NCBI GenBank assembly: GCA_965218095.1
Contig: OZ244587.1
Coordinates: 1,280,001-1,344,000 of the forward strand
Direction of reading: 5' to 3'
DNA length: 64,000 nt
Source of the DNA: Candidatus Poribacteria bacterium
GTDB lineage: Bacteria > Poribacteria > WGA-4E > PCPOR2b
Made by a program: the position numbers and the translations under genes. A model generated the notes under the pieces. The model did no database searches and was not told the origin of the DNA. It worked only from the letters and a program-made list of their open reading frames with translations. Positions 3,581 through 13,385 of this stretch are shown here, piece after piece (the first letter of the stretch is position 1; every line of letters begins with the position of its first letter).

Positions 3581-3666
3581 AGAAAAAGATCGTCAGATCG
3601 TCCTGATTAATAGAGCTGGATCTGATCTCTACAGTGGCTTACATGTTACGCATCACATATCACGCT

Positions 3667-4074
3667 TCACTCGCCACTAAAGAGCCCCATCCCCGCAGAC
3701 CCATCTGCAATCTTCCGAATCTGCTTTTCAAAGCCAGACGGTGAAAACGTCCATGTGAGCCAAAGTGGCGCATCACCGGTGTTGACAAAACGGTGTTCAA
3801 CCTTCGGTGGGATAAAAATCACCGTCCCCGGTTTCAGGTCCGCGACCTCATCCCCGACGAACCCTTTCCCTTGACCGCCAAAGATAAATATGATCTCTTC
3901 AGCTTCGTCATGGGCGTGCATTGGGATCTCGCTATGGGTATCGATCTCCTCCAGCCCCGCGGCAAAGCGTTCTGTTTCAACGGTGTTCGGTTCGATGCAG
4001 GTGTATAATGTGCGCGGGGTTTCCCCTTCAATCCGAACGACTTCAGCGTCTTCTTTGTGGAAAAAATATGTCAT
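3667..4074 (-). CDS. Cupin domain protein
   Basis: PMHAHDEAEE...IPPKVEHRFVNTG. Confidence 0.85.
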   Translation of the reverse strand: MTYFFHKEDAEVVRIEGETPRTLYTCIEPNTVETERFAAGLEEIDTHSEIPMHAHDEAEEIIFIFGGQGKGFVGDEVADLKPGTVIFIPPKVEHRFVNTGDAPLWLTWTFSPSGFEKQIRKIADGSAGMGLFSGE

Positions 4075-4200
4075 CGTATCTTCCTTTCTCTGTGTACATT
4101 GATAAAAGTCTATCTTTTGATTTCTATTGGTGCAGGAAACTCCCAGAAATGTAAAATCTCTTTTTGTGAGGTCGATATTTCACGTTTTACGTTTCACGCA

Positions 4201-5502
4201 TTACGTCTTCTGCGGCTTTTTCTTCGCCGCGGGGAACAGGATGTTGTTCAGGATGAGCCGGTAACCCGGTGAGTGTTTGTGGAGATCCAGGTTGGTTGGC
4301 ACTTTTCCTTCTCCGACGAGGTGGCGATAGTCCTCCGGATCATGTCCGCCGAGGAACGTAAACGTCCCCCTGACCAACTTGCCATGGATGTACTTGGCGT
4401 AACGGCTTCCCTCAATGTCACCCATGATTGTCACAGTGTCGCGGATGGTGTCCTTGTTAAACGAAGTCGTCTGTCCGAGAAATCCGCGTACCCGACTCAC
4501 ATGATTCTGAGTGAGCATCGTCGGGATGGGATCATGCTTTGCAGCAAACTCAAATAACACGAAATCCTCCACGCCTGATAGCGGGTTGAGATCCGGGCGC
4601 GGGTTATCGATATTTGAAAATTCATACCGATTCGGATTTGGGTAGAGCGTAAAATTCTCAAAGCCGAAGGTTCTATCAAAATTAAGTTTGGACTGATAGT
4701 CTAGGTCGAGTGGTGTCCCGTCGAGTTCAGGCGCAACGATATCTACGCTTCCGCCCCCTGTCGAGAGCGCGATGTCCAATGTTTCTGGCGCCGAACACAT
4801 GGCAAACAGAAATCCACCCTTGACGATGTAATCCTGGATCTGCTGGGCAATATCCACCTTGTGTTTCGGCACGCCATCAAATCCCGCTTCTGCCGCAGCC
4901 TGTTCAAACAGGTGCTTGCGCTGCTGATACCATACTTGCCCCTTATAAGCACTGTAGAATTTTCCGTGCTGCCCCGTGAAATCCTCATGGTGCAAGTGCA
5001 GCCAATCGTACTCTTTCGTGAACAGGACCCCCGCTGCAACCTGCTTATCCCAGATTGTGTCATAGGGAATCTCTGCGTACTCCAAAGCGATTTTTACGGC
5101 ATCATCCCATGGATCTCGGTAGGGCGTATCCTCCGGTGGCGCATAAACAGCGATCTTGGGTGCTTTTTCCAGCAAGATCTCATCCATATTGCTATTATCC
5201 ATTTCGGACTGGATAGCACCATAATCGGAAACGGAGATCGGCTGAAAACTGACGCCCATCACCTGCGCCTTGAGTTGCACCTCCGGAGTGTCTCTCAGAA
5301 GAAAGGAGCCTCCCCGATAATTCAACAGCCACTTTGCACCATACTGCCGTGGACCTTCCAGCGCCCAATATGTCAATCCATAAGCCTTCAAGTGATTAAT
5401 TTGTGTATTATCCATCGGCACAAGTAACCACTGTGCAGAGGTGTTGCTGACTATCATCAAGAAAAAGAGTGATACCAGCAGGGTGCTTTTTGCTGAATTC
5501 AT
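4201..5502 (-). CDS. Conserved exported protein, class I glutamine-amidotransferase-like (family often mislabelled asparagine synthetase B)
   Basis: Signal peptide; HLKAYG, WLLNYRGGSF, PWDDAV, HLHHEDFTGQ, GGFLFAMCSA, GGHDPEDY, SPGYRLILNNILFP. Confidence 0.75.
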   Translation of the reverse strand: MNSAKSTLLVSLFFLMIVSNTSAQWLLVPMDNTQINHLKAYGLTYWALEGPRQYGAKWLLNYRGGSFLLRDTPEVQLKAQVMGVSFQPISVSDYGAIQSEMDNSNMDEILLEKAPKIAVYAPPEDTPYRDPWDDAVKIALEYAEIPYDTIWDKQVAAGVLFTKEYDWLHLHHEDFTGQHGKFYSAYKGQVWYQQRKHLFEQAAAEAGFDGVPKHKVDIAQQIQDYIVKGGFLFAMCSAPETLDIALSTGGGSVDIVAPELDGTPLDLDYQSKLNFDRTFGFENFTLYPNPNRYEFSNIDNPRPDLNPLSGVEDFVLFEFAAKHDPIPTMLTQNHVSRVRGFLGQTTSFNKDTIRDTVTIMGDIEGSRYAKYIHGKLVRGTFTFLGGHDPEDYRHLVGEGKVPTNLDLHKHSPGYRLILNNILFPAAKKKPQKT

Positions 5503-5514
5503 CGATTTTTCCTC

Positions 5515-6354
5515 CTAAAAAAGTAATACGTATTGCGTATTGCGTAAAACAACCTTCCCAGCCTTCCCCTTCCTTCCTTTCCTTGTATAAAATGAACTCA
5601 TGAACAGCACTTCAAAATTTCGTGTCGTCATCTCCCCAATTTTCTTTAGTGAAACACCGCGGAGTTCAGCGATTTTTTCTGCTATGGTGCGAACATAAGC
5701 CGGTTCGTTGCGTTTGCCGCGCCGAAACTGTGGCGCCAACCATGGGCAATCCGTCTCCACAAGCAAACGGTCTGCGGGCACTTCCCGTGCTGCGTCTTGC
5801 AGTGCCTTCGATTTGCGGTAGGTTACCGGTCCGCCGATGCCGATGTAAAATCCGAGATCGAGGCTCTGTCTCACGAGCTCCACGTCGCCTGAAAAGCAGT
5901 GCATCACGCCGCACACCTTTCCGAGCCGCGCTCGCAAAATTGGGAGGATGTCGTGATATGCCTCGCGGTTGTGAATGACGATTGGGAGATCTAATTCCTC
6001 TGCCAGATCCAATTGTCGTTCAAACGCCATCTTTTGGATTGGACGCGGCGAGAGATCGCGATAGTAATCGAGTCCCATCTCGCCAAGCGCGAGCACCTTC
6101 GGATGGGCAGCAAGTTCACGAAAAATTCGTATGGTTTCGTCATCCAGGTCTTTCGCATCGTGTGGATGGATGCCGACAGTGGCATAGACCTGATCATATT
6201 GTTCTGCAAGATTGATCGCCCCACGGCTGGTCTCCGGATCGAATCCGATCGCCAAAATCGCATGAACACCAGCTTGTCGGGCGCGTTCTATCATTGCCTC
6301 CCGATCGGCATCGAACTGATTGAGTTGAATGTGGGCATGTGAATCAATGAACAT
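5515..6354 (-). CDS. tatD: TatD-family DNase
   Basis: DSHAH, GIHPH, GEMGLDY, IHNRE, HCFSG, ETDCPW, RNEP. Confidence 0.95.
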   Translation of the reverse strand: MFIDSHAHIQLNQFDADREAMIERARQAGVHAILAIGFDPETSRGAINLAEQYDQVYATVGIHPHDAKDLDDETIRIFRELAAHPKVLALGEMGLDYYRDLSPRPIQKMAFERQLDLAEELDLPIVIHNREAYHDILPILRARLGKVCGVMHCFSGDVELVRQSLDLGFYIGIGGPVTYRKSKALQDAAREVPADRLLVETDCPWLAPQFRRGKRNEPAYVRTIAEKIAELRGVSLKKIGEMTTRNFEVLFMSSFYTRKGRKGKAGKVVLRNTQYVLLF

Positions 6355-6473
6355 AATAAAATTTCCGATTTCGTTAATATCACTCCATCAAGGTTCTCTC
6401 GACACGAATTTGAGTGTACAAAAACATTCTCGTGAGGTGAGGCGCTTACAATTGTCAACCGATCATTGACAAG

Positions 6474-7538
6474 TTAGGGACGATAAATAATCTGAAAAAC
6501 CTTAATGTCATTCATTGCGAAATCACTCACGAAAACGAAATTCGCTTTGGAAACTGCAATGCCTAAGGGGTCTACAAGCACCTCATTGTCAAATGCCATC
6601 ACAAGCTGTCCATCTTTCGTGAAGACCTGGATGCGCTGATTTCCTCGATCTGTTACATAGAGATAACCCCAGCGATCCAGTTCGATGTGACTCGGTTCTC
6701 GAAATTGCCCCAGCCCTTCTCCTTCAGTCCCCCATATTTTGACGAGGTTGCCGCTGAAGTCGTATTTCTTGATCCGATGGTTGCCTGAATCGACAATGTA
6801 GACATTCCCACGGGCGTCTGCGACGAGATCTGTTGGATCGCGAAACTGTTCCCTTGCCCCACCAAAACCTCCTCGTGTCAGCACGGGGAGGCCTTCAGTG
6901 TTAAACTGGACGAATCGGTTGTTTCCCGTATCGACGATGTAGACCTCCCCATTGCGCCCGATGCCAATGCCGCTTGGCAGATCGAGATCTATTACAGCAT
7001 CCCCATCTCTATCCTCATAGCCGGTGTCCGATCGGCTTCCAACCATGACGTGGAAGATCCGGTCTACGAGGTCGCAGTATTGGATGCGGTTGTTATCTGT
7101 GTCCGCAACATAGAGGAGTTCGGTCCGCTGAAAATTGATGGCAACATCGCTCGGATTATCAAATTCCCCCCGCCGCCAACCACGCACCCCAAATTCCGCG
7201 ACGAAATTCCCTTCGGGGTCGACGACCTGGACGCGGTTGTTTCCCGAATCGGCGACGTAGAGGCGCCCAAGACGATCGAAATCAAGCCCAGCCGGACGCA
7301 GGAATTGACCCGCCCCCTGACCGGGACGACCAATCGTTTCGATATAGTTGACGCTCAGTATGTGCGGAGCAGGGTGGTCATGAATGGATGGAACAATCTG
7401 GGGCGGCGTAATCTTTTTTGTTAGGAAAAGCTCAGGCTCTGCTTCGACAGCTTGATCAACAGCGGGGCGCAGGGAAGCACAACTCAAACCAAAGGAGAGA
7501 AAGATCAGAATGTGCAGGAAAACGCATCTCGCCTGCAT
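6474..7538 (-). CDS. NHL-repeat (6-bladed beta-propeller) lipoprotein
   Basis: Lipobox GLSC; repeated F..P.g...D..G..YVADS.N.R.Q units. Confidence 0.9.
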   Translation of the reverse strand: MQARCVFLHILIFLSFGLSCASLRPAVDQAVEAEPELFLTKKITPPQIVPSIHDHPAPHILSVNYIETIGRPGQGAGQFLRPAGLDFDRLGRLYVADSGNNRVQVVDPEGNFVAEFGVRGWRRGEFDNPSDVAINFQRTELLYVADTDNNRIQYCDLVDRIFHVMVGSRSDTGYEDRDGDAVIDLDLPSGIGIGRNGEVYIVDTGNNRFVQFNTEGLPVLTRGGFGGAREQFRDPTDLVADARGNVYIVDSGNHRIKKYDFSGNLVKIWGTEGEGLGQFREPSHIELDRWGYLYVTDRGNQRIQVFTKDGQLVMAFDNEVLVDPLGIAVSKANFVFVSDFAMNDIKVFQIIYRP

Positions 7539-7541
7539 CGC

Positions 7542-8147
7542 TTACCCCTTTTGGACTCGAAACTTAAATACAAAGGTGGTTTCTGTTTCGGTGAATTCGC
7601 TGTGGACTTTGGGAACAATAATACGTAAACTTGAAGATTTAATACTGCGCTTGTGGAAATATAGGAAGAATTGAACACGACGTTTTGGCATAATCGTTGT
7701 TCTCTCAATGTCTTCGCGCGGCAACGCTACGGGATCACCCATTACGCGAAGCGCCCTATTTTCTCTAAAATCCTGGCGGAATTCAGGGGGCAACTTGGGT
7801 TTAAAGTTTTTGCCGAGATGAAATGAAAGCTGAGACCTGTGGATGGGCTTTGCGACATTGCCGGACTGATCGAGCATCGAACAATTCTTCTGTTTAAGCG
7901 AAATCCAGTGATTCGTACTATTGAAGACTATAATTCCGAATGCATCCACCTCTTTTACATCATTCAAGGGGACTGCCATCACTGTGACACCGTTTTTGAC
8001 ATGGACAACTGCCCCTGACCGGGGGAGGATGGTTGCCTCCGGATCAAAAACAGGAACAATGCGGATCGGTTGAAAGGCGGAACAGCCCAGATTTGCGAGG
8101 AGTAATATGGTAAGTAATTGTAGGCTCAGTTGTATGTATTTTTTCAT
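7542..8147 (-). CDS. Hypothetical lipoprotein
   Basis: Lipobox NLGC; 4-nt overlap with the upstream stop codon. Confidence 0.7.
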   Translation of the reverse strand: MKKYIQLSLQLLTILLLANLGCSAFQPIRIVPVFDPEATILPRSGAVVHVKNGVTVMAVPLNDVKEVDAFGIIVFNSTNHWISLKQKNCSMLDQSGNVAKPIHRSQLSFHLGKNFKPKLPPEFRQDFRENRALRVMGDPVALPREDIERTTIMPKRRVQFFLYFHKRSIKSSSLRIIVPKVHSEFTETETTFVFKFRVQKG

Positions 8148-9280
8148 TTTCCTTCGGCGAAAAAAGCGAGCAACTTACTAAGTGTTGCCGGTAGGTCTTG
8201 ACGCTGCACGTAGTGATCTATAATCACGTCACGTTGTGCATAGCTGGATGAAGGCGTGGATTGTAAGTCAGCCCCGCGAGAGGCGTTAGTCTGTTCGCCG
8301 GGTCCACCTTGACACACGTGGTTCTGTTCCACAAGTACGAGATCCCCCAGCGGGAACTTTGTTGAGAATCCTCCCAGGGAATTTTGATCGGTTAGAAGCG
8401 TAATCTGTGGCAGACAGGCTTGTGACAAGTTGTCCATTTCAACTGTCAGATATGTAATTTCGGCGGATAAAAGTTCAGGCTGTCCGGGTTGATTGGATTT
8501 TCTCTTAGGAAGCGCATCACCTGGATAAACAGTGATAAGAGGGAGTTTTCTCTCCAACGCTGTACGAATTGCAGCGAGCAGCGTTACGAAATGGACCCGT
8601 TGAGGGACAGCATAGGGGTCAACAACGACGAGGATCGCCGGATGACTCGAAATTGTTCCTTCTCCTGCTGCGATTTGCCATCGGACCTGATTCGGCGCCG
8701 TGTTTCGATTAACGAGATCTGTAAGTCTAATAGCAGCCGATAACTTTTTGTCGATTGAAGGCGGGTAGAGATCGGATATCGCATCCGAATCGAACAGATA
8801 GCGGAGACGTACATCAGCAGGCATCGGAGAATAATAATTACAGTGTGGACAAACATAAAAATTCCGTTCCAATGTCTGTTTGAATACAAACTCATTACAG
8901 AATGTACACTTATTCCACAGCCCACTGCGCCTATCTTTTTGAAAACTGGCTATAGCCTCATTTTCATCCTCATATCGATCGAAGAGAGTGACAAGCTTGG
9001 CCATGACAATCAAGCTCTTGATGTTTCCACTGACCTGGAGTAGAGCAATCCACCCGCTTTTTCTTTGAACTGATGTATAGCCGGCAACAATGACACCAAG
9101 ACCGGAGCTATCCACCATGCGGACTTTTTCGAGATTCAACAGGATTTTAACCTCGCCCTCCTCAGCAGCATTAATCTGTTCATCAATGATATGCTTGAGA
9201 ACTAAGCTATCGGAACCGATAACCCTGCCCTCAATATCTAAAATCGTGACACCTTCTCTTTTGCGAATATTTACATTCAT
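8144..9280 (-). CDS. STAS (anti-sigma antagonist) fused to an AccD-like zinc ribbon and degenerate carboxyltransferase-beta domain
   Basis: N-terminal STAS with VDSSGLG; then LWNKCTFC...ERNFYVCPHCNY...RLRYLFD, LLTDQNSLGGFSTKFPLGDLVLVE, IIDHYVQRQDLPATLSKLL. Confidence 0.85.
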   Translation of the reverse strand: MNVNIRKREGVTILDIEGRVIGSDSLVLKHIIDEQINAAEEGEVKILLNLEKVRMVDSSGLGVIVAGYTSVQRKSGWIALLQVSGNIKSLIVMAKLVTLFDRYEDENEAIASFQKDRRSGLWNKCTFCNEFVFKQTLERNFYVCPHCNYYSPMPADVRLRYLFDSDAISDLYPPSIDKKLSAAIRLTDLVNRNTAPNQVRWQIAAGEGTISSHPAILVVVDPYAVPQRVHFVTLLAAIRTALERKLPLITVYPGDALPKRKSNQPGQPELLSAEITYLTVEMDNLSQACLPQITLLTDQNSLGGFSTKFPLGDLVLVEQNHVCQGGPGEQTNASRGADLQSTPSSSYAQRDVIIDHYVQRQDLPATLSKLLAFFAEGK

Positions 9281-9310
9281 TTGGCGGCCTCCTTGGATTG
9301 AAGTGATGGC

Positions 9311-9339
9311 AGCCTATTGGGTTGCCCTGAGTTTGTCAA
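9311..9339 (-). promoter_or_regulatory. Internal sigma70-like promoter ahead of the STAS-AccD gene
   Basis: TTGACA-N17-TAGGCT, followed by AAGGAGG RBS. Confidence 0.5.
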
Positions 9340-9360
9340 GAAATTGAGTCGGGACGACGC

Positions 9361-9792
9361 TTATCGCTTATCATCCGACTCTTTATGTTTAACCATTCTG
9401 ACAACTGTGCCTGACTTTTCGTAAGTGACGACATCCATACACGATTCCATCAGAAAAAGTCCTCTGCCACTACTCTTTAAAAGGTTTGCCGGATCCAACG
9501 GATCTGCCACTTTTTCCCGATCGAAACCTTGCCCCCCATCCCGGACGACAACTGTGAGCTTATCTGGATGAACAACGAACTCAAAGTGAGTTCGCTTATT
9601 CACATCCTCATTATTCCCATGTTTAATTGCATTCGTCCCGGCTTCAATCACTGCCAGATTCACCTGTTCGCATGTTTCCTCATCGAACCCCATCTCTCTA
9701 AGAATTTCGGAGATAAGCACGTCTAACAGGTAAACAAGCTGCATTGAGCTCGGGAGATCAAGGTGAATGACTTGCTCGGTTGTCTGTCCCAC
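9361..9792 (-). CDS. RsbW/SpoIIAB-like anti-sigma factor Ser kinase
   Basis: EAGTNAIKHG, DGGQGFD, SSGRGLFLM (HATPase_c_2 boxes). Confidence 0.9.
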   Translation of the reverse strand: MGQTTEQVIHLDLPSSMQLVYLLDVLISEILREMGFDEETCEQVNLAVIEAGTNAIKHGNNEDVNKRTHFEFVVHPDKLTVVVRDGGQGFDREKVADPLDPANLLKSSGRGLFLMESCMDVVTYEKSGTVVRMVKHKESDDKR

Positions 9793-9796
9793 CTGG

Positions 9797-10978
9797 CTAT
9801 TCCTTTCCGTGTTTAATTTTTATAACGACAATTGTGATATCATCGTTCCGATGATTTGTTCCGCTAAAATTCAAGAGATCCGTCTCAATCGCCTGGCAAA
9901 GCATTTCAGCGGATAGATTTCGGCTCGACTGAAAGATTTCAGAGAGCTTTTCTTCACTGTAAAACGTTCCATCAGACTCACGCTCTGTTTCCGTGACTCC
10001 ATCCGTATAGAGCAGAATCTCACCGCCGGGCTCACAGTGAATCGCCTCAGGTTCGAATTCGGCAAAGTCGAAACTACCCAACACTATGCCACCGACTTTC
10101 AGTTGATCAACATCAGTGCCTTGATTTTTCAGATACAGCGGGTAACAGTGTCCTGCATTTGAATAAGTAAAAGTCATCGCAACGGGATCCAAAATTCCGT
10201 AGATCATCGTGGCGAAAAGATCCGGATCGGTGTCAATTACAAGTAGGTCATTGATCCGCTTGAGAATGGCTGCCGGCGAGGCTTCTTCACGACAAACGAG
10301 CCGAAGGGTGGTACGAATCATTACCATCAGCAAAGCTGCAGGAATGCCTTTGCCGCGGACATCGGCGATTGCGATGCCTAAACGATTGTCCGCTAACGGA
10401 ATAAAGTCGTAGAAATCCCCCGAAACTGTCATTGAACTCCGCAGCATGCCGGCAATATCAAATCCTGGCAGGTCAGGGGCGCCTTGAGGTAACAGCTTTT
10501 GCTGAATCATTGCCGCCGTTTGGAGGTGTGAGGCAAGCTGTTCAATTCCTGCTTCACTGAACCAATCTCCCATTGCCCCAATGAGCGGATTGATATATTT
10601 TGTCGGGCGCGTTCGCCCAAGTACGGCTTCAATTCGGGCCGTCAACTCACCAAGGTCAAAGGGTTTTGTGATGTAATCGTCTGCACCGGCGTTCAGCCCT
10701 CGAACCTTCTCGTGAGTTTGGGCTCGCGCCGTAAGCATAATGACGGGAATGGTACGGGTTTGTGCATCCACTTTGAGTTTTTCCAAAACCTCAAACCCAT
10801 CCACCACCGGCATCATCAGATCGAGGAGGATAAGATCGGGCAAATGCGTTTTCGCTTGTTCTAACGCACTTATGCCATCATTTGCAGTGATAACATCGAA
10901 TCCATCAGCAGTCAGACTCATCTCAACCAACTCAAGAATATCGATATCATCATCCACAGTGAGGATTGTCTCAGCCAT
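9797..10978 (-). CDS. Response regulator fused to SpoIIE/RsbU-type PP2C phosphatase
   Basis: Receiver DDD...LLDLMMP...TKPF; PP2C SGDFYD, ADVRGKG, YTDGVTE, DDIT. Confidence 0.93.
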   Translation of the reverse strand: MAETILTVDDDIDILELVEMSLTADGFDVITANDGISALEQAKTHLPDLILLDLMMPVVDGFEVLEKLKVDAQTRTIPVIMLTARAQTHEKVRGLNAGADDYITKPFDLGELTARIEAVLGRTRPTKYINPLIGAMGDWFSEAGIEQLASHLQTAAMIQQKLLPQGAPDLPGFDIAGMLRSSMTVSGDFYDFIPLADNRLGIAIADVRGKGIPAALLMVMIRTTLRLVCREEASPAAILKRINDLLVIDTDPDLFATMIYGILDPVAMTFTYSNAGHCYPLYLKNQGTDVDQLKVGGIVLGSFDFAEFEPEAIHCEPGGEILLYTDGVTETERESDGTFYSEEKLSEIFQSSRNLSAEMLCQAIETDLLNFSGTNHRNDDITIVVIKIKHGKE

Positions 10979-11096
10979 TATTTAGAGATACTCCTTGAAT
11001 TAAAGAACTCCGCAAGTGGGCTAATGAGCAAATCAGCGAATCGTGAATCGGTTCATGGGTTCATTGAAATCCTGAACTCATGTACGAATGAACTTC

Positions 11097-13385
11097 TTAC
11101 GTTTTACGCATTACGTATCGCGCATCACATTTCACGTCCTGATCTTTTCCAACCAGAGATAATACAAACTGAAAATTGCTGCCTTTTCCTCGATCTCCGT
11201 CGTCAATCCACAAGGTTCCACCATGCGCCTCAATAATACTTTTGGTAATCGATAATCCCAAACCGGAACCGCCTTGCTGACGTGTGTGAATATCACTGAG
11301 CTGATAAAATTTGTCGAACACCTTTGGGCGTTCTTCGACTGGAATGCCTGGCCCTGTATCAATCACCTCAACGTGCAAGAGATTGCCATCAACTTTAAGT
11401 TTAACGACAACTTCACCGTTATTCGGCGTAAACTTAATCGCATTGCCAATCAGATTTGTAAAGACTTGGCCCATGCGCTCTTCGTCTCCGATAATCTCGG
11501 GAATTGATTCAGGAGCGATGAACTTCAACTGAATTGATTTCTCATCGGCTTGCGGGCGAATCTCCTCAATCCGCTGGGTTGCAATTTCCAGAAGCGAAAT
11601 CGGCGTCTCTCTCATTTGTATCCGCCCGGACTCAATCCGTGAAATATCGAGCAGATCGCTAATCAGAGCGGCAAGCCGCTTCGATTGGCGTTGGACCCGC
11701 GCGAGGCTATTCCGCTGTTTGTCGTTAATTGGACCAGCCTTGCCGTCTAGAATGAAAGAAACGAAACCGATGATGGAAGTCAGCGGTGTACGCAATTCAT
11801 GAGAGACCAAGGAGATGAAATCGGATTTCATCTGGTCAATCTCTTTTTCTCGTGTAATATCATCGAAAAGGTAGACCGTGCCGAGTGCAAAGCCGTTTTC
11901 GTCAAGGAATGGGCTGGAAATGATCCGCAGAACCAGCTTCTCATCATTGTGAACTAAAGTGACTTCAGATATTACCGGTTTATTCAGAGAGATTTGGCGT
12001 TGATTCTCCTTGAAGATGTTAATTAATTCTTCATTTTGGATAATCTGGGTGAAATCCTTACCGATTCCATCTGTGCTGACGTTCAGCAGGTATTTAGCAG
12101 CAGGGTTGATGTGAAGCACACGGTTATTCGAGTCCACAAGGATTAACCCTTCTGCGAGACTATTCACGATAGCGGTCATCTTCTTCTCTTCTTTTGTCAA
12201 CTTTTCGACCGCATTTTTGAGGTTCCACCGCATTGAATTGAATTCGCCTGCCAGAATGCCGACTTCACTGCTACTGGTGACGGGAATCTCCTGATCGAAT
12301 TCCCCATGCCCGATGGCTCGCGCCGCACTTGCCACCTGCATAATCGGTGTGACAATGCGTCGGGAGAAAACAAGTGCAATCAGAATCACAACCAGGCAAG
12401 AGATCAGCGTGCAAGTCAGGATTCGCTTGGTGAGTTTTGTCACTTCGTAGAAAGCCAATGAGGTGGGCTGCGAAACCAGAACTGTCCAGTTTTCGAAGTT
12501 TTGCTTATCATGACTTTGTTTCCTCCATCGCTGGGTGCGTGCCCAACCATATACCCTTTTTTCCCCTCGTACATCGGTTTCCCCATCCATTTCATAGCCA
12601 TAATACTCATCGCGCGCACTAATTGCCGCCATCGCCGCATCGCTCATTTCAACACGATCCAAGAAATCGTAACCGCCACCCGGGGAAGAAGCGATGACTC
12701 GCCCGTGCTCATCAATGAGACAAATTTCTGTTACCTGAATCTGCTTATCTTCATCGGAAGGCGACTTGACCAGTTCAGAAAGTTCAGGTAGTGGGCTAAC
12801 AGCTTTCAACACACCGACCACTTTCGAGTCAGAGGTTTTATCAGGAATTGGCAAAGCGATTGACAGATAGTGATGTTGTTTTTGGGCATCATATTGGACA
12901 TCGCTAATAAACTTATACCCGAACCCATTATTATAAGCCCTGCTCCACCAGTCTTCATCGATCTTTTGAGAACGTAAACGTTCATCAGTTGCGATAATAA
13001 CCTCCTGGTGCAGGTTGGTAATAATTATCTTGCTATCAGGACCCAGACGCCTTTCAAGCCTTTTGACGTCATCCCACAAGTGCGTAGAGATTTGATCCAA
13101 TGTCGATGATACGTTGTCTACATTGGTGACGGCGACCGCTGGGCCGATGCGCCACACCAGCGCTTCAATTGGTATCAACAGCCTGAGAATCGTGCGATCC
13201 GCTTGATCAATCTTCTCTTGAGCCAGTCGTACCAAGCTTTCGCCGATTGTGTTTTTCAACGCAATCTTCCCGGACCAATAGGCCAAAGCGGAAACGACAA
13301 GTAAAGGAATGAGCGAGACCAGCAGGAAGAGCAACACAAGCTGCCCGCGCAAGCCTATTCTGAGACAAAGGCGTTCAATCATCAT
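11097..13385 (-). CDS. Membrane sensor histidine kinase (Cache-like, HAMP, PAS, HisKA, HATPase)
   Basis: Two TM helices, SHELRTPLTSI, NLIGNAIKF, DTGPGI, GGSGLGL. Confidence 0.93.
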   Translation of the reverse strand: MMIERLCLRIGLRGQLVLLFLLVSLIPLLVVSALAYWSGKIALKNTIGESLVRLAQEKIDQADRTILRLLIPIEALVWRIGPAVAVTNVDNVSSTLDQISTHLWDDVKRLERRLGPDSKIIITNLHQEVIIATDERLRSQKIDEDWWSRAYNNGFGYKFISDVQYDAQKQHHYLSIALPIPDKTSDSKVVGVLKAVSPLPELSELVKSPSDEDKQIQVTEICLIDEHGRVIASSPGGGYDFLDRVEMSDAAMAAISARDEYYGYEMDGETDVRGEKRVYGWARTQRWRKQSHDKQNFENWTVLVSQPTSLAFYEVTKLTKRILTCTLISCLVVILIALVFSRRIVTPIMQVASAARAIGHGEFDQEIPVTSSSEVGILAGEFNSMRWNLKNAVEKLTKEEKKMTAIVNSLAEGLILVDSNNRVLHINPAAKYLLNVSTDGIGKDFTQIIQNEELINIFKENQRQISLNKPVISEVTLVHNDEKLVLRIISSPFLDENGFALGTVYLFDDITREKEIDQMKSDFISLVSHELRTPLTSIIGFVSFILDGKAGPINDKQRNSLARVQRQSKRLAALISDLLDISRIESGRIQMRETPISLLEIATQRIEEIRPQADEKSIQLKFIAPESIPEIIGDEERMGQVFTNLIGNAIKFTPNNGEVVVKLKVDGNLLHVEVIDTGPGIPVEERPKVFDKFYQLSDIHTRQQGGSGLGLSITKSIIEAHGGTLWIDDGDRGKGSNFQFVLSLVGKDQDVKCDARYVMRKT

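Follow-up and report, generated by a model that had tools for sequence, protein, structure and literature searches.

A STAS domain joined to a degenerate AccD in a sponge-symbiont poribacterium: a lineage-restricted fusion of a conserved gene pair from a partner-switching operon

Candidatus Poribacteria bacterium, a sponge symbiont, carries on contig OZ244587.1 an open reading frame (ORF) of 378 residues in which a STAS domain of the RsbV/SpoIIAA type is followed, within one polypeptide, by a degenerate copy of AccD, the beta subunit of acetyl-CoA carboxylase (ACC). The ORF lies in a stretch of 64,000 nucleotides of that contig, hereafter called the window, and all positions given below are those of the window. 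Its parts, with the evidence on which each assignment is based, are as follows.

8144..9280, minus strand: fused ORF of 378 residues, an uninterrupted frame made up of STAS domain, short junction, zinc ribbon and degenerate AccD body.
8954..9280, minus strand: STAS domain, RsbV/SpoIIAA type, residues 1-109 (PF01740).
9104..9109, minus strand: Ser58-Ser59 of DSSGLG, candidate phospho-acceptor (alignment with DSSGLGVI of SpoIIAA).
8936..8941, minus strand: fusion junction, Gln114/Lys115 (DNA alignment with split relatives).
8840..8917, minus strand: C4 zinc ribbon of AccD, residues 122-147 (PF17848).
8147..8920, minus strand: carboxyltransferase-beta-like body, residues 121-378, predicted to be non-catalytic (TIGR00515, AlphaFold2 (AF2) model, dN/dS).
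8597..8617, minus strand: PYAVPQR, residues 222-228, at the site of the canonical GGSMG glycine block (alignments).
8474..8527, minus strand: YPGDALPKRKSNQPGQPE, residues 252-269, at the site of the canonical SGGARMQEG block (alignments).
8228..8317, minus strand: variable polar segment, residues 322-351, at the site of IGFAGPRVI...LPEGFQ (alignments, low conservation).

Both parts of the protein are recognized by profile models. Pfam places a STAS domain on residues 3-109 (PF01740, E 7.9e-10, 38.9 bits against a cut-off of 22.6) and the zinc ribbon Zn_ribbon_ACC on residues 122-147 (PF17848, E 3.2e-8, 34 bits against a cut-off of 24.5). Among the NCBIfam models, the anti-sigma-factor antagonist model TIGR00377 scores 49.1 bits, slightly below its cut-off of 53.45, and the accD model TIGR00515 (285 positions) covers residues 99-374 with its positions 3-279, at 70.5 bits and thus far under the equivalog cut-off of 317.45. 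The STAS part aligns to SpoIIAA (1auz, E 5.3e-7), with DSSGLGVI identical at every letter; we take the DSSGLG motif to be the site of the phosphorylated serine in SpoIIAA and RsbV. An earlier reading of this DNA, made from its letters without database searches (the sequence-only reading), had described a single ORF holding a STAS domain with DSSGLG, the C4 ribbon of AccD and later AccD segments, and the Pfam and NCBIfam matches, together with the alignments, confirm that description.

Alignments with E. coli AccD, with the canonical AccD of the same genome and with other canonical AccDs reveal that three blocks have been replaced. GGSMG, SGGARMQE and IGFAGPRV are absent from the fused ORF and from every degenerate relative aligned, which bears out the absences that had been claimed (GGSMG, SGGARMQE and IGFAGPRVI). 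Canonical SGGARMQE aligns to YPGDALPKRK... in the fused ORF; a second group of degenerate AccDs, which is more divergent and is described below, carries long insertions at the SGGARMQEG site. The features kept are the four cysteines of the ribbon, invariant in 36/36 rows of the family alignment, together with AGEG, LPLIT, LTD, PLGDxVLxE, ID.YV.R and the C-terminal helix. The malonyl-CoA site of the carboxyltransferase lies in the beta subunit, and its oxyanion holes are formed by main-chain amides of glycines (PMC2831308). We regard the anatomical statements, taken jointly, as very probable, and with them that the AccD-like half would be a catalytically dead paralogue of AccD.

The fold of this half appears to have survived the loss of the blocks. 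The AF2 model of the fused protein, built on an alignment of 80 rows, has a mean predicted local distance difference test score (pLDDT) of 78.8 and a predicted template-modelling score of 0.68. It is confident across most of the AccD-like half, where means of 10-residue blocks mostly exceed 90, and drops to block means of 58, 46 and 51 over residues 321-350; it is also weak in STAS residues 69-103, where the alignment is shallow. The top eight Foldseek matches are all AccD chains, and superposition by VIA-align of residues 121-378 on E. coli AccD (2f9y_B) gives a Z of 21.1 and a root-mean-square deviation of 3.3 A over 201 aligned residues, so that the carboxyltransferase fold expected of this half is borne out.

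Nei-Gojobori dN/dS was estimated over 18 orthologues from related loci (L003-L020; L021 and L022 were dropped by a motif filter). The median is 0.157 for the AccD-like half (range 0.103-0.225; 121 usable of 153 pairs) and 0.055 for the STAS domain (17 rows; 121 of 136 pairs usable). Purifying selection acts on the AccD-like half, which does not drift neutrally, and the pseudo-AccD of the sequence-only reading stands in all its parts: glycine-rich blocks lost, carboxyltransferase beta fold kept, C-terminal half selected.

The distribution of constraint within the family is uneven. The 36-row alignment has 19 invariant positions, nine of which fall among the 27 positions of the ribbon and ten among the 240 elsewhere (Fisher p 1.4e-5), and mean conservation is 0.77 in the ribbon versus 0.63 in the rest. 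In 19 canonical AccDs the ribbon reaches 0.54 versus 0.60 for the rest, and conservation peaks on the catalytic blocks. Constraint thus seems to have moved in this family from the catalytic blocks to the zinc ribbon, although the contrast is only indicative, because the rows are mutually related and the two sets differ in depth. The lowest conservation of the family (0.31-0.46) is found in the stretch at the site of IGFAGPRV and onward, and no new conserved block occurs in the family alignment in place of those lost. A fold that is kept and selected might also belong to a protein that is still an enzyme, with altered chemistry or substrate and under the regulation of its STAS partner; oxyanion holes are generally known to vary in some crotonase-fold enzymes. 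This we judge very unlikely, since all three blocks on which conservation peaks in canonical AccDs are gone with nothing conserved in their stead, one of the replacements shows the lowest conservation in the whole protein, and the Pfam family Carboxyl_trans matches neither the fused protein nor the four degenerate relatives scanned.

The degenerate family is small. HMMER searches with the AccD-like half against 1.84 billion representatives returned 718 proteins at E<=1e-3, 34 at E<=1e-10 and seven at E<=1e-30; when 27 of the best matches were scored on the NCBIfam AccD model, 15 reached 34-114 bits and one 184 bits, and the remaining 11 were canonical AccDs or fragments thereof (271-397 bits). 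Two further clusters, P0070 and P0074 (25 and 39 members), hold degenerate AccD-like proteins of 220-247 residues that match the AccD model only around the zinc ribbon; P0074 is named Candidatus Poribacteria and contains Tara ocean sequences. To judge from their sequences, these clusters may be further-eroded members in pelagic lineages.

A canonical AccD is present elsewhere in the genome, in one copy (307.8 bits on TIGR00515, all three blocks present) alongside a single AccA (373.8 bits), in agreement with the separate accD that the sequence-only reading had asked to see confirmed. AccA is matched only once per genome at E<=1e-30, in 25/25 genomes, with 65-86% identity among relatives. A complex of AccA with the AccD-like half was predicted from alignments of 14 rows and 36 rows. 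The score was 0.66 in each of three runs, whereas the best of three controls reached 0.00; the runs had at least 53% of contacts in common, with a partner pLDDT of at least 77. The mark applied to such scores is reached by 58 of 80 solved complexes versus two of 110 mismatched pairs. The confident modelled interface comprises the region of the LSQ..LP strand, GD, the ID motif and the C-terminal helix. One option that the sequence-only reading had offered, a decoy subunit, gains support from this complex at the level of a model.

The fusion itself is genuine. Compared with split relatives in a DNA alignment, the fused ORF has lost the stop codon of the STAS gene, the entire spacer and the codons with which the AccD-like gene begins, and the two parts meet in frame (...ASFQ to KDRRSGLWNKC). 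By this comparison, the fusion is a recent product of an in-frame deletion that joined two neighbouring genes. Its protein cluster has four members: two proteins of 378 residues, whose assemblies measure 6.27 and 6.35 Mb, a third member found on a metagenome contig of 1.5 kb, and a fragment. The full-length fused proteins occur as three sequence variants differing at one to three residues. Nine sequencing runs from three studies contain at least half of the sampled words of the locus, and contigs of two of these studies, independent of the present assembly (X3 record 16 and X4 record 24), span the junction (about 8938/8939) with 0 gaps, one with 0 base differences and the other with 12. Contigs from two sponge RNA libraries cover portions of both halves and may be DNA carry-over; none of them bridges the junction by the 31-letter rule, the best extending 17 nucleotides beyond it. 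The restriction of the fusion to one lineage would also be expected of an artefact, that is, an assembly error or a pseudogene left by an accidental deletion. This explanation is already largely refuted, and we consider it extremely unlikely in view of the gap-free contigs from two independent studies, one of them with base differences of its own, the intact frame and full length of all three variants, the RNA-library contigs on both halves, and the purifying selection that acts on both halves in relatives.

As an architecture, in contrast, the fusion is exceptional. A word-indexed protein search gave 67 matches of 207-662 residues, among which the fused form is seen only in the fusion's own cluster (1/67). 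Fifty-seven of the matches (P0002-P0058), several of them named Candidatus Poribacteria, span the AccD-like part alone; they are mostly 260-300 residues long, with the zinc ribbon at most as a Pfam domain. Six longer proteins among the AccD-half matches are AccD-AccA or other fusions, and none of the six has a STAS domain. In 40 related genomes, a STAS gene of about 115 residues, 54-88% identical, lies directly upstream of a separate AccD-like gene, and ORF analysis finds stop codons between the two. A sample of one genome per species yielded 53 loci, 39 of the degenerate type. The separate STAS gene is directly upstream in 36/39 of these, and the 36 loci with both parts are split without exception (36/36 split, 0 fused), the distance from the STAS stop to the AccD-like match being 63-1009 nucleotides. 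The remaining three comprise one locus that begins inside the AccD-like gene (L083), one in which the AccD-like gene (4001-4747) stands among unrelated genes and the STAS operon is on another contig of that genome (L066), and one in which only a broken STAS remnant (about 3625-4011) separates the RsbW-like gene from an intact AccD-like gene (L072).

The second degenerate group (P0072/73/75/77) was traced in metagenome contigs L100-L102. L100 and L102 have the same upstream row of genes as the other loci, and in L101 a STAS gene lies directly upstream; all three informative loci (3/3) are split, with the STAS gene upstream. In these contigs the AccD-like protein retains 25-29% identity, versus 57-65% for the signalling proteins. 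Among families of related genomes, a clear AccD-like match occurs in at least 23/24 genomes of family f1, at least 5/6 of f2 and 5/5 of f3, and in 0/5 of f4 among the matches listed. The fusion is therefore young and restricted to one lineage, while the gene pair itself is conserved. The STAS-AccD link proposed by the sequence-only reading fails, under the refuting condition which that reading had set, as a claim about conserved architecture, since the two parts are neighbouring genes in all 36 related loci with both; as a functional link it stands, because the pair is conserved.

Some details of the split loci may be added. In the relatives L004-L020 and L047-L084, the AccD-like gene apparently starts at a GTG about ten codons before the ribbon. 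The spacer between the two genes is long for an operon and poorly conserved in the four sequences aligned, and the longest spacers (L075-L078) might contain an extra small gene. In L019 (2366-3568) and L021 (2268-3476), which belong to two genera, the AccD-like gene is followed not by a lipoprotein gene but by a GHMP-kinase-like (galactokinase-like) gene, a call made from the GRVNLIGEHTDYN motif only.

The fusion and its neighbours are all encoded on one strand, separated by short gaps. The other members of the row in the window are listed here.

11097..13385, minus strand: sensor histidine kinase, dCache-HAMP-PAS-HisKA-HATPase (Pfam); heads the row in related loci.
9797..10978, minus strand: response-regulator receiver fused to a PP2C (SpoIIE-type) phosphatase, hereafter REC-PP2C (PF00072, E 1.4e-28; PF07228, E 8e-52).
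9361..9792, minus strand: RsbW-like serine kinase, HATPase_c_2 (PF13581, E 7.8e-27); upstream of STAS in related loci too.
7542..8147, minus strand: lipoprotein-like gene of 201 residues; its start and the fusion stop share 4 nucleotides.
6474..7538, minus strand: secreted NHL-repeat beta-propeller, the last conserved gene of the row (PF01436, E 5.4e-38, six stretches).

Most related loci have this order in common: sensor kinase, REC-PP2C, RsbW-like kinase, STAS, AccD-like, lipoprotein and NHL. The top NCBIfam match of the kinase is RsbW (E 3.9e-25, under the cut-off of that model), and the adjoining kinase and REC-PP2C phosphatase substantiate the partner-switching context that had been claimed. 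No sigma-factor gene was found among the ORFs of 5000-13000, distant sigma genes not having been searched for. The lipoprotein-like gene, kept downstream in most related loci, belongs to no Pfam family, and its nearest Atlas clusters are called ‘lipoprotein family protein’ without further name; the overlap of 4 nucleotides would couple it translationally to the fusion. Both the lipoprotein-like and the NHL proteins have N-termini resembling signal peptides. Between 5000 and 14500, nine consensus-like promoter sites were counted versus 11.1 expected from shuffles, and four terminator-like sites versus 9.3.

An operon with kinase, antagonist and phosphatase but no sigma factor invites the idea that the dead AccD takes the place of the sigma factor as the sequestered target of the RsbW-like kinase, in which case the output would not be ACC but, for instance, the lipoprotein/NHL pair or another enzyme. 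The conserved downstream position of these two genes, the overlap of the lipoprotein start with the fusion stop and the fast divergence of the AccD-like sequence agree with such a role. On the other hand, both downstream products would be outside the cytoplasm, as indicated by their N-termini, the features that the AccD-like protein has kept are those of an ACC subunit, and the AccA complex model passes its controls; we therefore find this reading unlikely.

The lack of a sigma factor or any other obvious output is also compatible with a role at the input: the degenerate pocket might bind acetyl-, malonyl- or long-chain acyl-CoA and inform STAS/RsbW as a metabolite sensor. The canonical beta subunit carries a malonyl-CoA site (PMC2831308), and the fold is kept and under selection. 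However, a dedicated input already exists in the dCache sensor kinase and REC-PP2C, the pocket-lining glycine blocks are replaced, one of them by a variable segment of low model confidence, and the canonical site is built jointly with the alpha subunit. A sensor of this kind seems to us quite improbable.

Our preferred reading, put forward tentatively and with doubt still somewhat outweighing belief, is that the fused protein acts as a phospho-switched, non-catalytic “poison” beta subunit of ACC. The dead AccD would retain the parts needed to enter ACC, namely the zinc ribbon and the C-terminal surface that the model places against AccA; without the glycine blocks of the catalytic core, the assembly surfaces would be kept and the chemistry lost. 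It would then compete with AccD for AccA, and perhaps also for biotin carboxylase (BC) and biotin carboxyl carrier protein (BCCP). Since there is a single AccA per genome, any AccA captured by the dead AccD would be lost to the catalytic AccD, and less AccA for the latter would mean lower malonyl-CoA synthesis. Whether the dead AccD is free to engage would be decided by the phosphorylation state of STAS, in which the RsbW-like kinase would phosphorylate the DSSGLG serine and REC-PP2C, governed by the sensor kinase, would dephosphorylate it.

In this lineage, the STAS domain is tethered in cis, about eight residues ahead of the ribbon, where E. coli AccD has its N-terminal BC-binding peptide. 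In E. coli ACC filaments studied by cryo-EM, BC and BCCP are bound by the N-terminus and zinc domain of AccD, contacts in which the zinc domain is buried (PMC11160672). The full version of the preferred reading, in which the dead AccD takes the only AccA of the cell, docks BC/BCCP through its ribbon and silences the ACC holo-complex under two-component control of the partner switch, is in our opinion doubtful.

Several observations weigh against the poison-subunit reading. AccA-AccD complexes have already been solved, and the score of 0.66 may therefore reflect memory of the prediction model and no more than likeness. Residues of the modelled AccA interface are not significantly better conserved than others (0.69 versus 0.64, Mann-Whitney p 0.12), and the zinc ribbon lies outside the confident interface. 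Divergence is much faster in the AccD-like protein than in the signalling proteins, which is unexpected of a protein that would have to keep fitting a highly conserved AccA. The two exceptional loci L066 and L072 imply that a dead AccD can persist without an adjacent intact STAS gene. Moreover, phosphorylation, AccA binding and ACC inhibition are steps that we infer for every family member.

The conservation of the ribbon fits nucleic-acid binding just as well: the dead AccD, with or without AccA, might repress the translation of accA/accD or other mRNA under gating by STAS. This would explain why constraint in the family is strongest in the ribbon and why the ribbon has no place in the confident modelled interface, and in E. 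coli the carboxyltransferase binds accA/accD mRNA through the zinc finger of AccD and represses its translation (PMC2831308). Yet the physiological role of RNA binding by the carboxyltransferase is contested, cryo-EM of the E. coli enzyme showing the zinc domain buried in protein contacts (PMC11160672), and the rest of the beta fold and the C-terminal helix, unneeded for RNA binding alone, are conserved too. We give this explanation little credence.

Compared with known systems, the fused protein is alike to AccD (TIGR00515; 2f9y_B, 2f9i_B, 8uz2) in its C4 ribbon, in its beta fold over the whole length, in the modelled pairing with AccA and in the motifs common to both. It differs from AccD in its score on the family model, in the absence of the three blocks, in having a variable insert and a low-confidence loop at two of the lost-block sites, and in being joined to STAS within a signalling operon, canonical AccD lying elsewhere in the genome. 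With the RsbV/SpoIIAA-RsbW/SpoIIAB-RsbU systems, the locus shares a STAS domain with DSSGLG, an adjoining HATPase_c_2 kinase and a PP2C phosphatase. The phosphatase here has a receiver domain under a sensor kinase. Unlike in those systems, the operon is without a sigma factor, and the conserved gene after STAS encodes a dead subunit of a metabolic enzyme, in this lineage in one polypeptide with STAS.

MlaB is a STAS protein that reportedly regulates the MlaF ABC ATPase in phospholipid trafficking, and thus resembles the present case in acting on a lipid-related machine and not on a sigma factor, although the partner is different and the fused ORF falls outside the mlaB family. Membership of the fused STAS domain in that family had been considered and was rejected, the mlaB model giving a weak match of 15.4 bits (E 0.019) where its cut-off is 90.

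Closer in design is All4160 of Anabaena PCC 7120, a glycosyltransferase with a STAS domain that is under the control of kinases and of the phosphatase HenR (PMC13555669). There as here, STAS is joined to an effector that is not a sigma factor, with dedicated kinase and phosphatase genes at the present locus; the effector of All4160 is an active enzyme, whereas here it is a dead subunit of a different pathway, and fusion is exceptional in the present family (0/36 related loci). Plant BADC proteins are reported to be inactive BCCP homologues inhibiting heteromeric ACCase (10.1101/634550). They would be alike in that a non-functional paralogue of an ACC subunit serves as a negative regulator by replacing the functional subunit, which for the present protein is conjectural; they differ in being related to BCCP and not to the carboxyltransferase beta subunit, in belonging to the plant kingdom, and in having no known STAS domain or kinase control.

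STAS-effector fusions switched by phosphorylation (All4160) and an inactive ACC-subunit paralogue as inhibitor (BADC) are thus already known. Full-text searches of one library of papers found none that links STAS or partner switching with AccD/carboxyltransferase or with Poribacteria, and no earlier description in that library of a partner-switching module whose conserved partner is a dead AccD. Relative to what was first proposed, the architecture is less widespread and the gene pair more so.

Post-translational adjustment of bacterial ACC is poorly understood, and sigma-less partner-switching modules are common, with outputs that are mostly unknown. Across a candidate phylum of sponge symbionts, a conserved, selected and apparently dead ACC subunit is the dedicated partner of such a module, and one lineage has joined switch and dead subunit into a single polypeptide. 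If the poison-subunit reading is true, an extracytoplasmic signal would act directly and post-translationally on the committed step of bacterial fatty-acid synthesis, and partner switching would gain an output of a new class; the fusion found in nature would be a ‘Rosetta stone’ revealing the contact between STAS and the dead AccD, and the pseudo-subunit principle known from plant BADC would have a bacterial example. If that reading is wrong, the family would still illustrate cleanly how constraint in a pseudoenzyme can leave the active site and settle on a zinc ribbon.

Four short stretches of the window (8025-8060, 7579-7619, 10658-10688 and 10788-10837) are matched over 31-50 nucleotides, with one or two differences, by other contigs, several of them at far greater depth (up to 136x) and with loose ends on both sides. 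All four were seen in DNA runs and three of them in RNA runs as well; they may be conserved words of other abundant organisms or small repeats.

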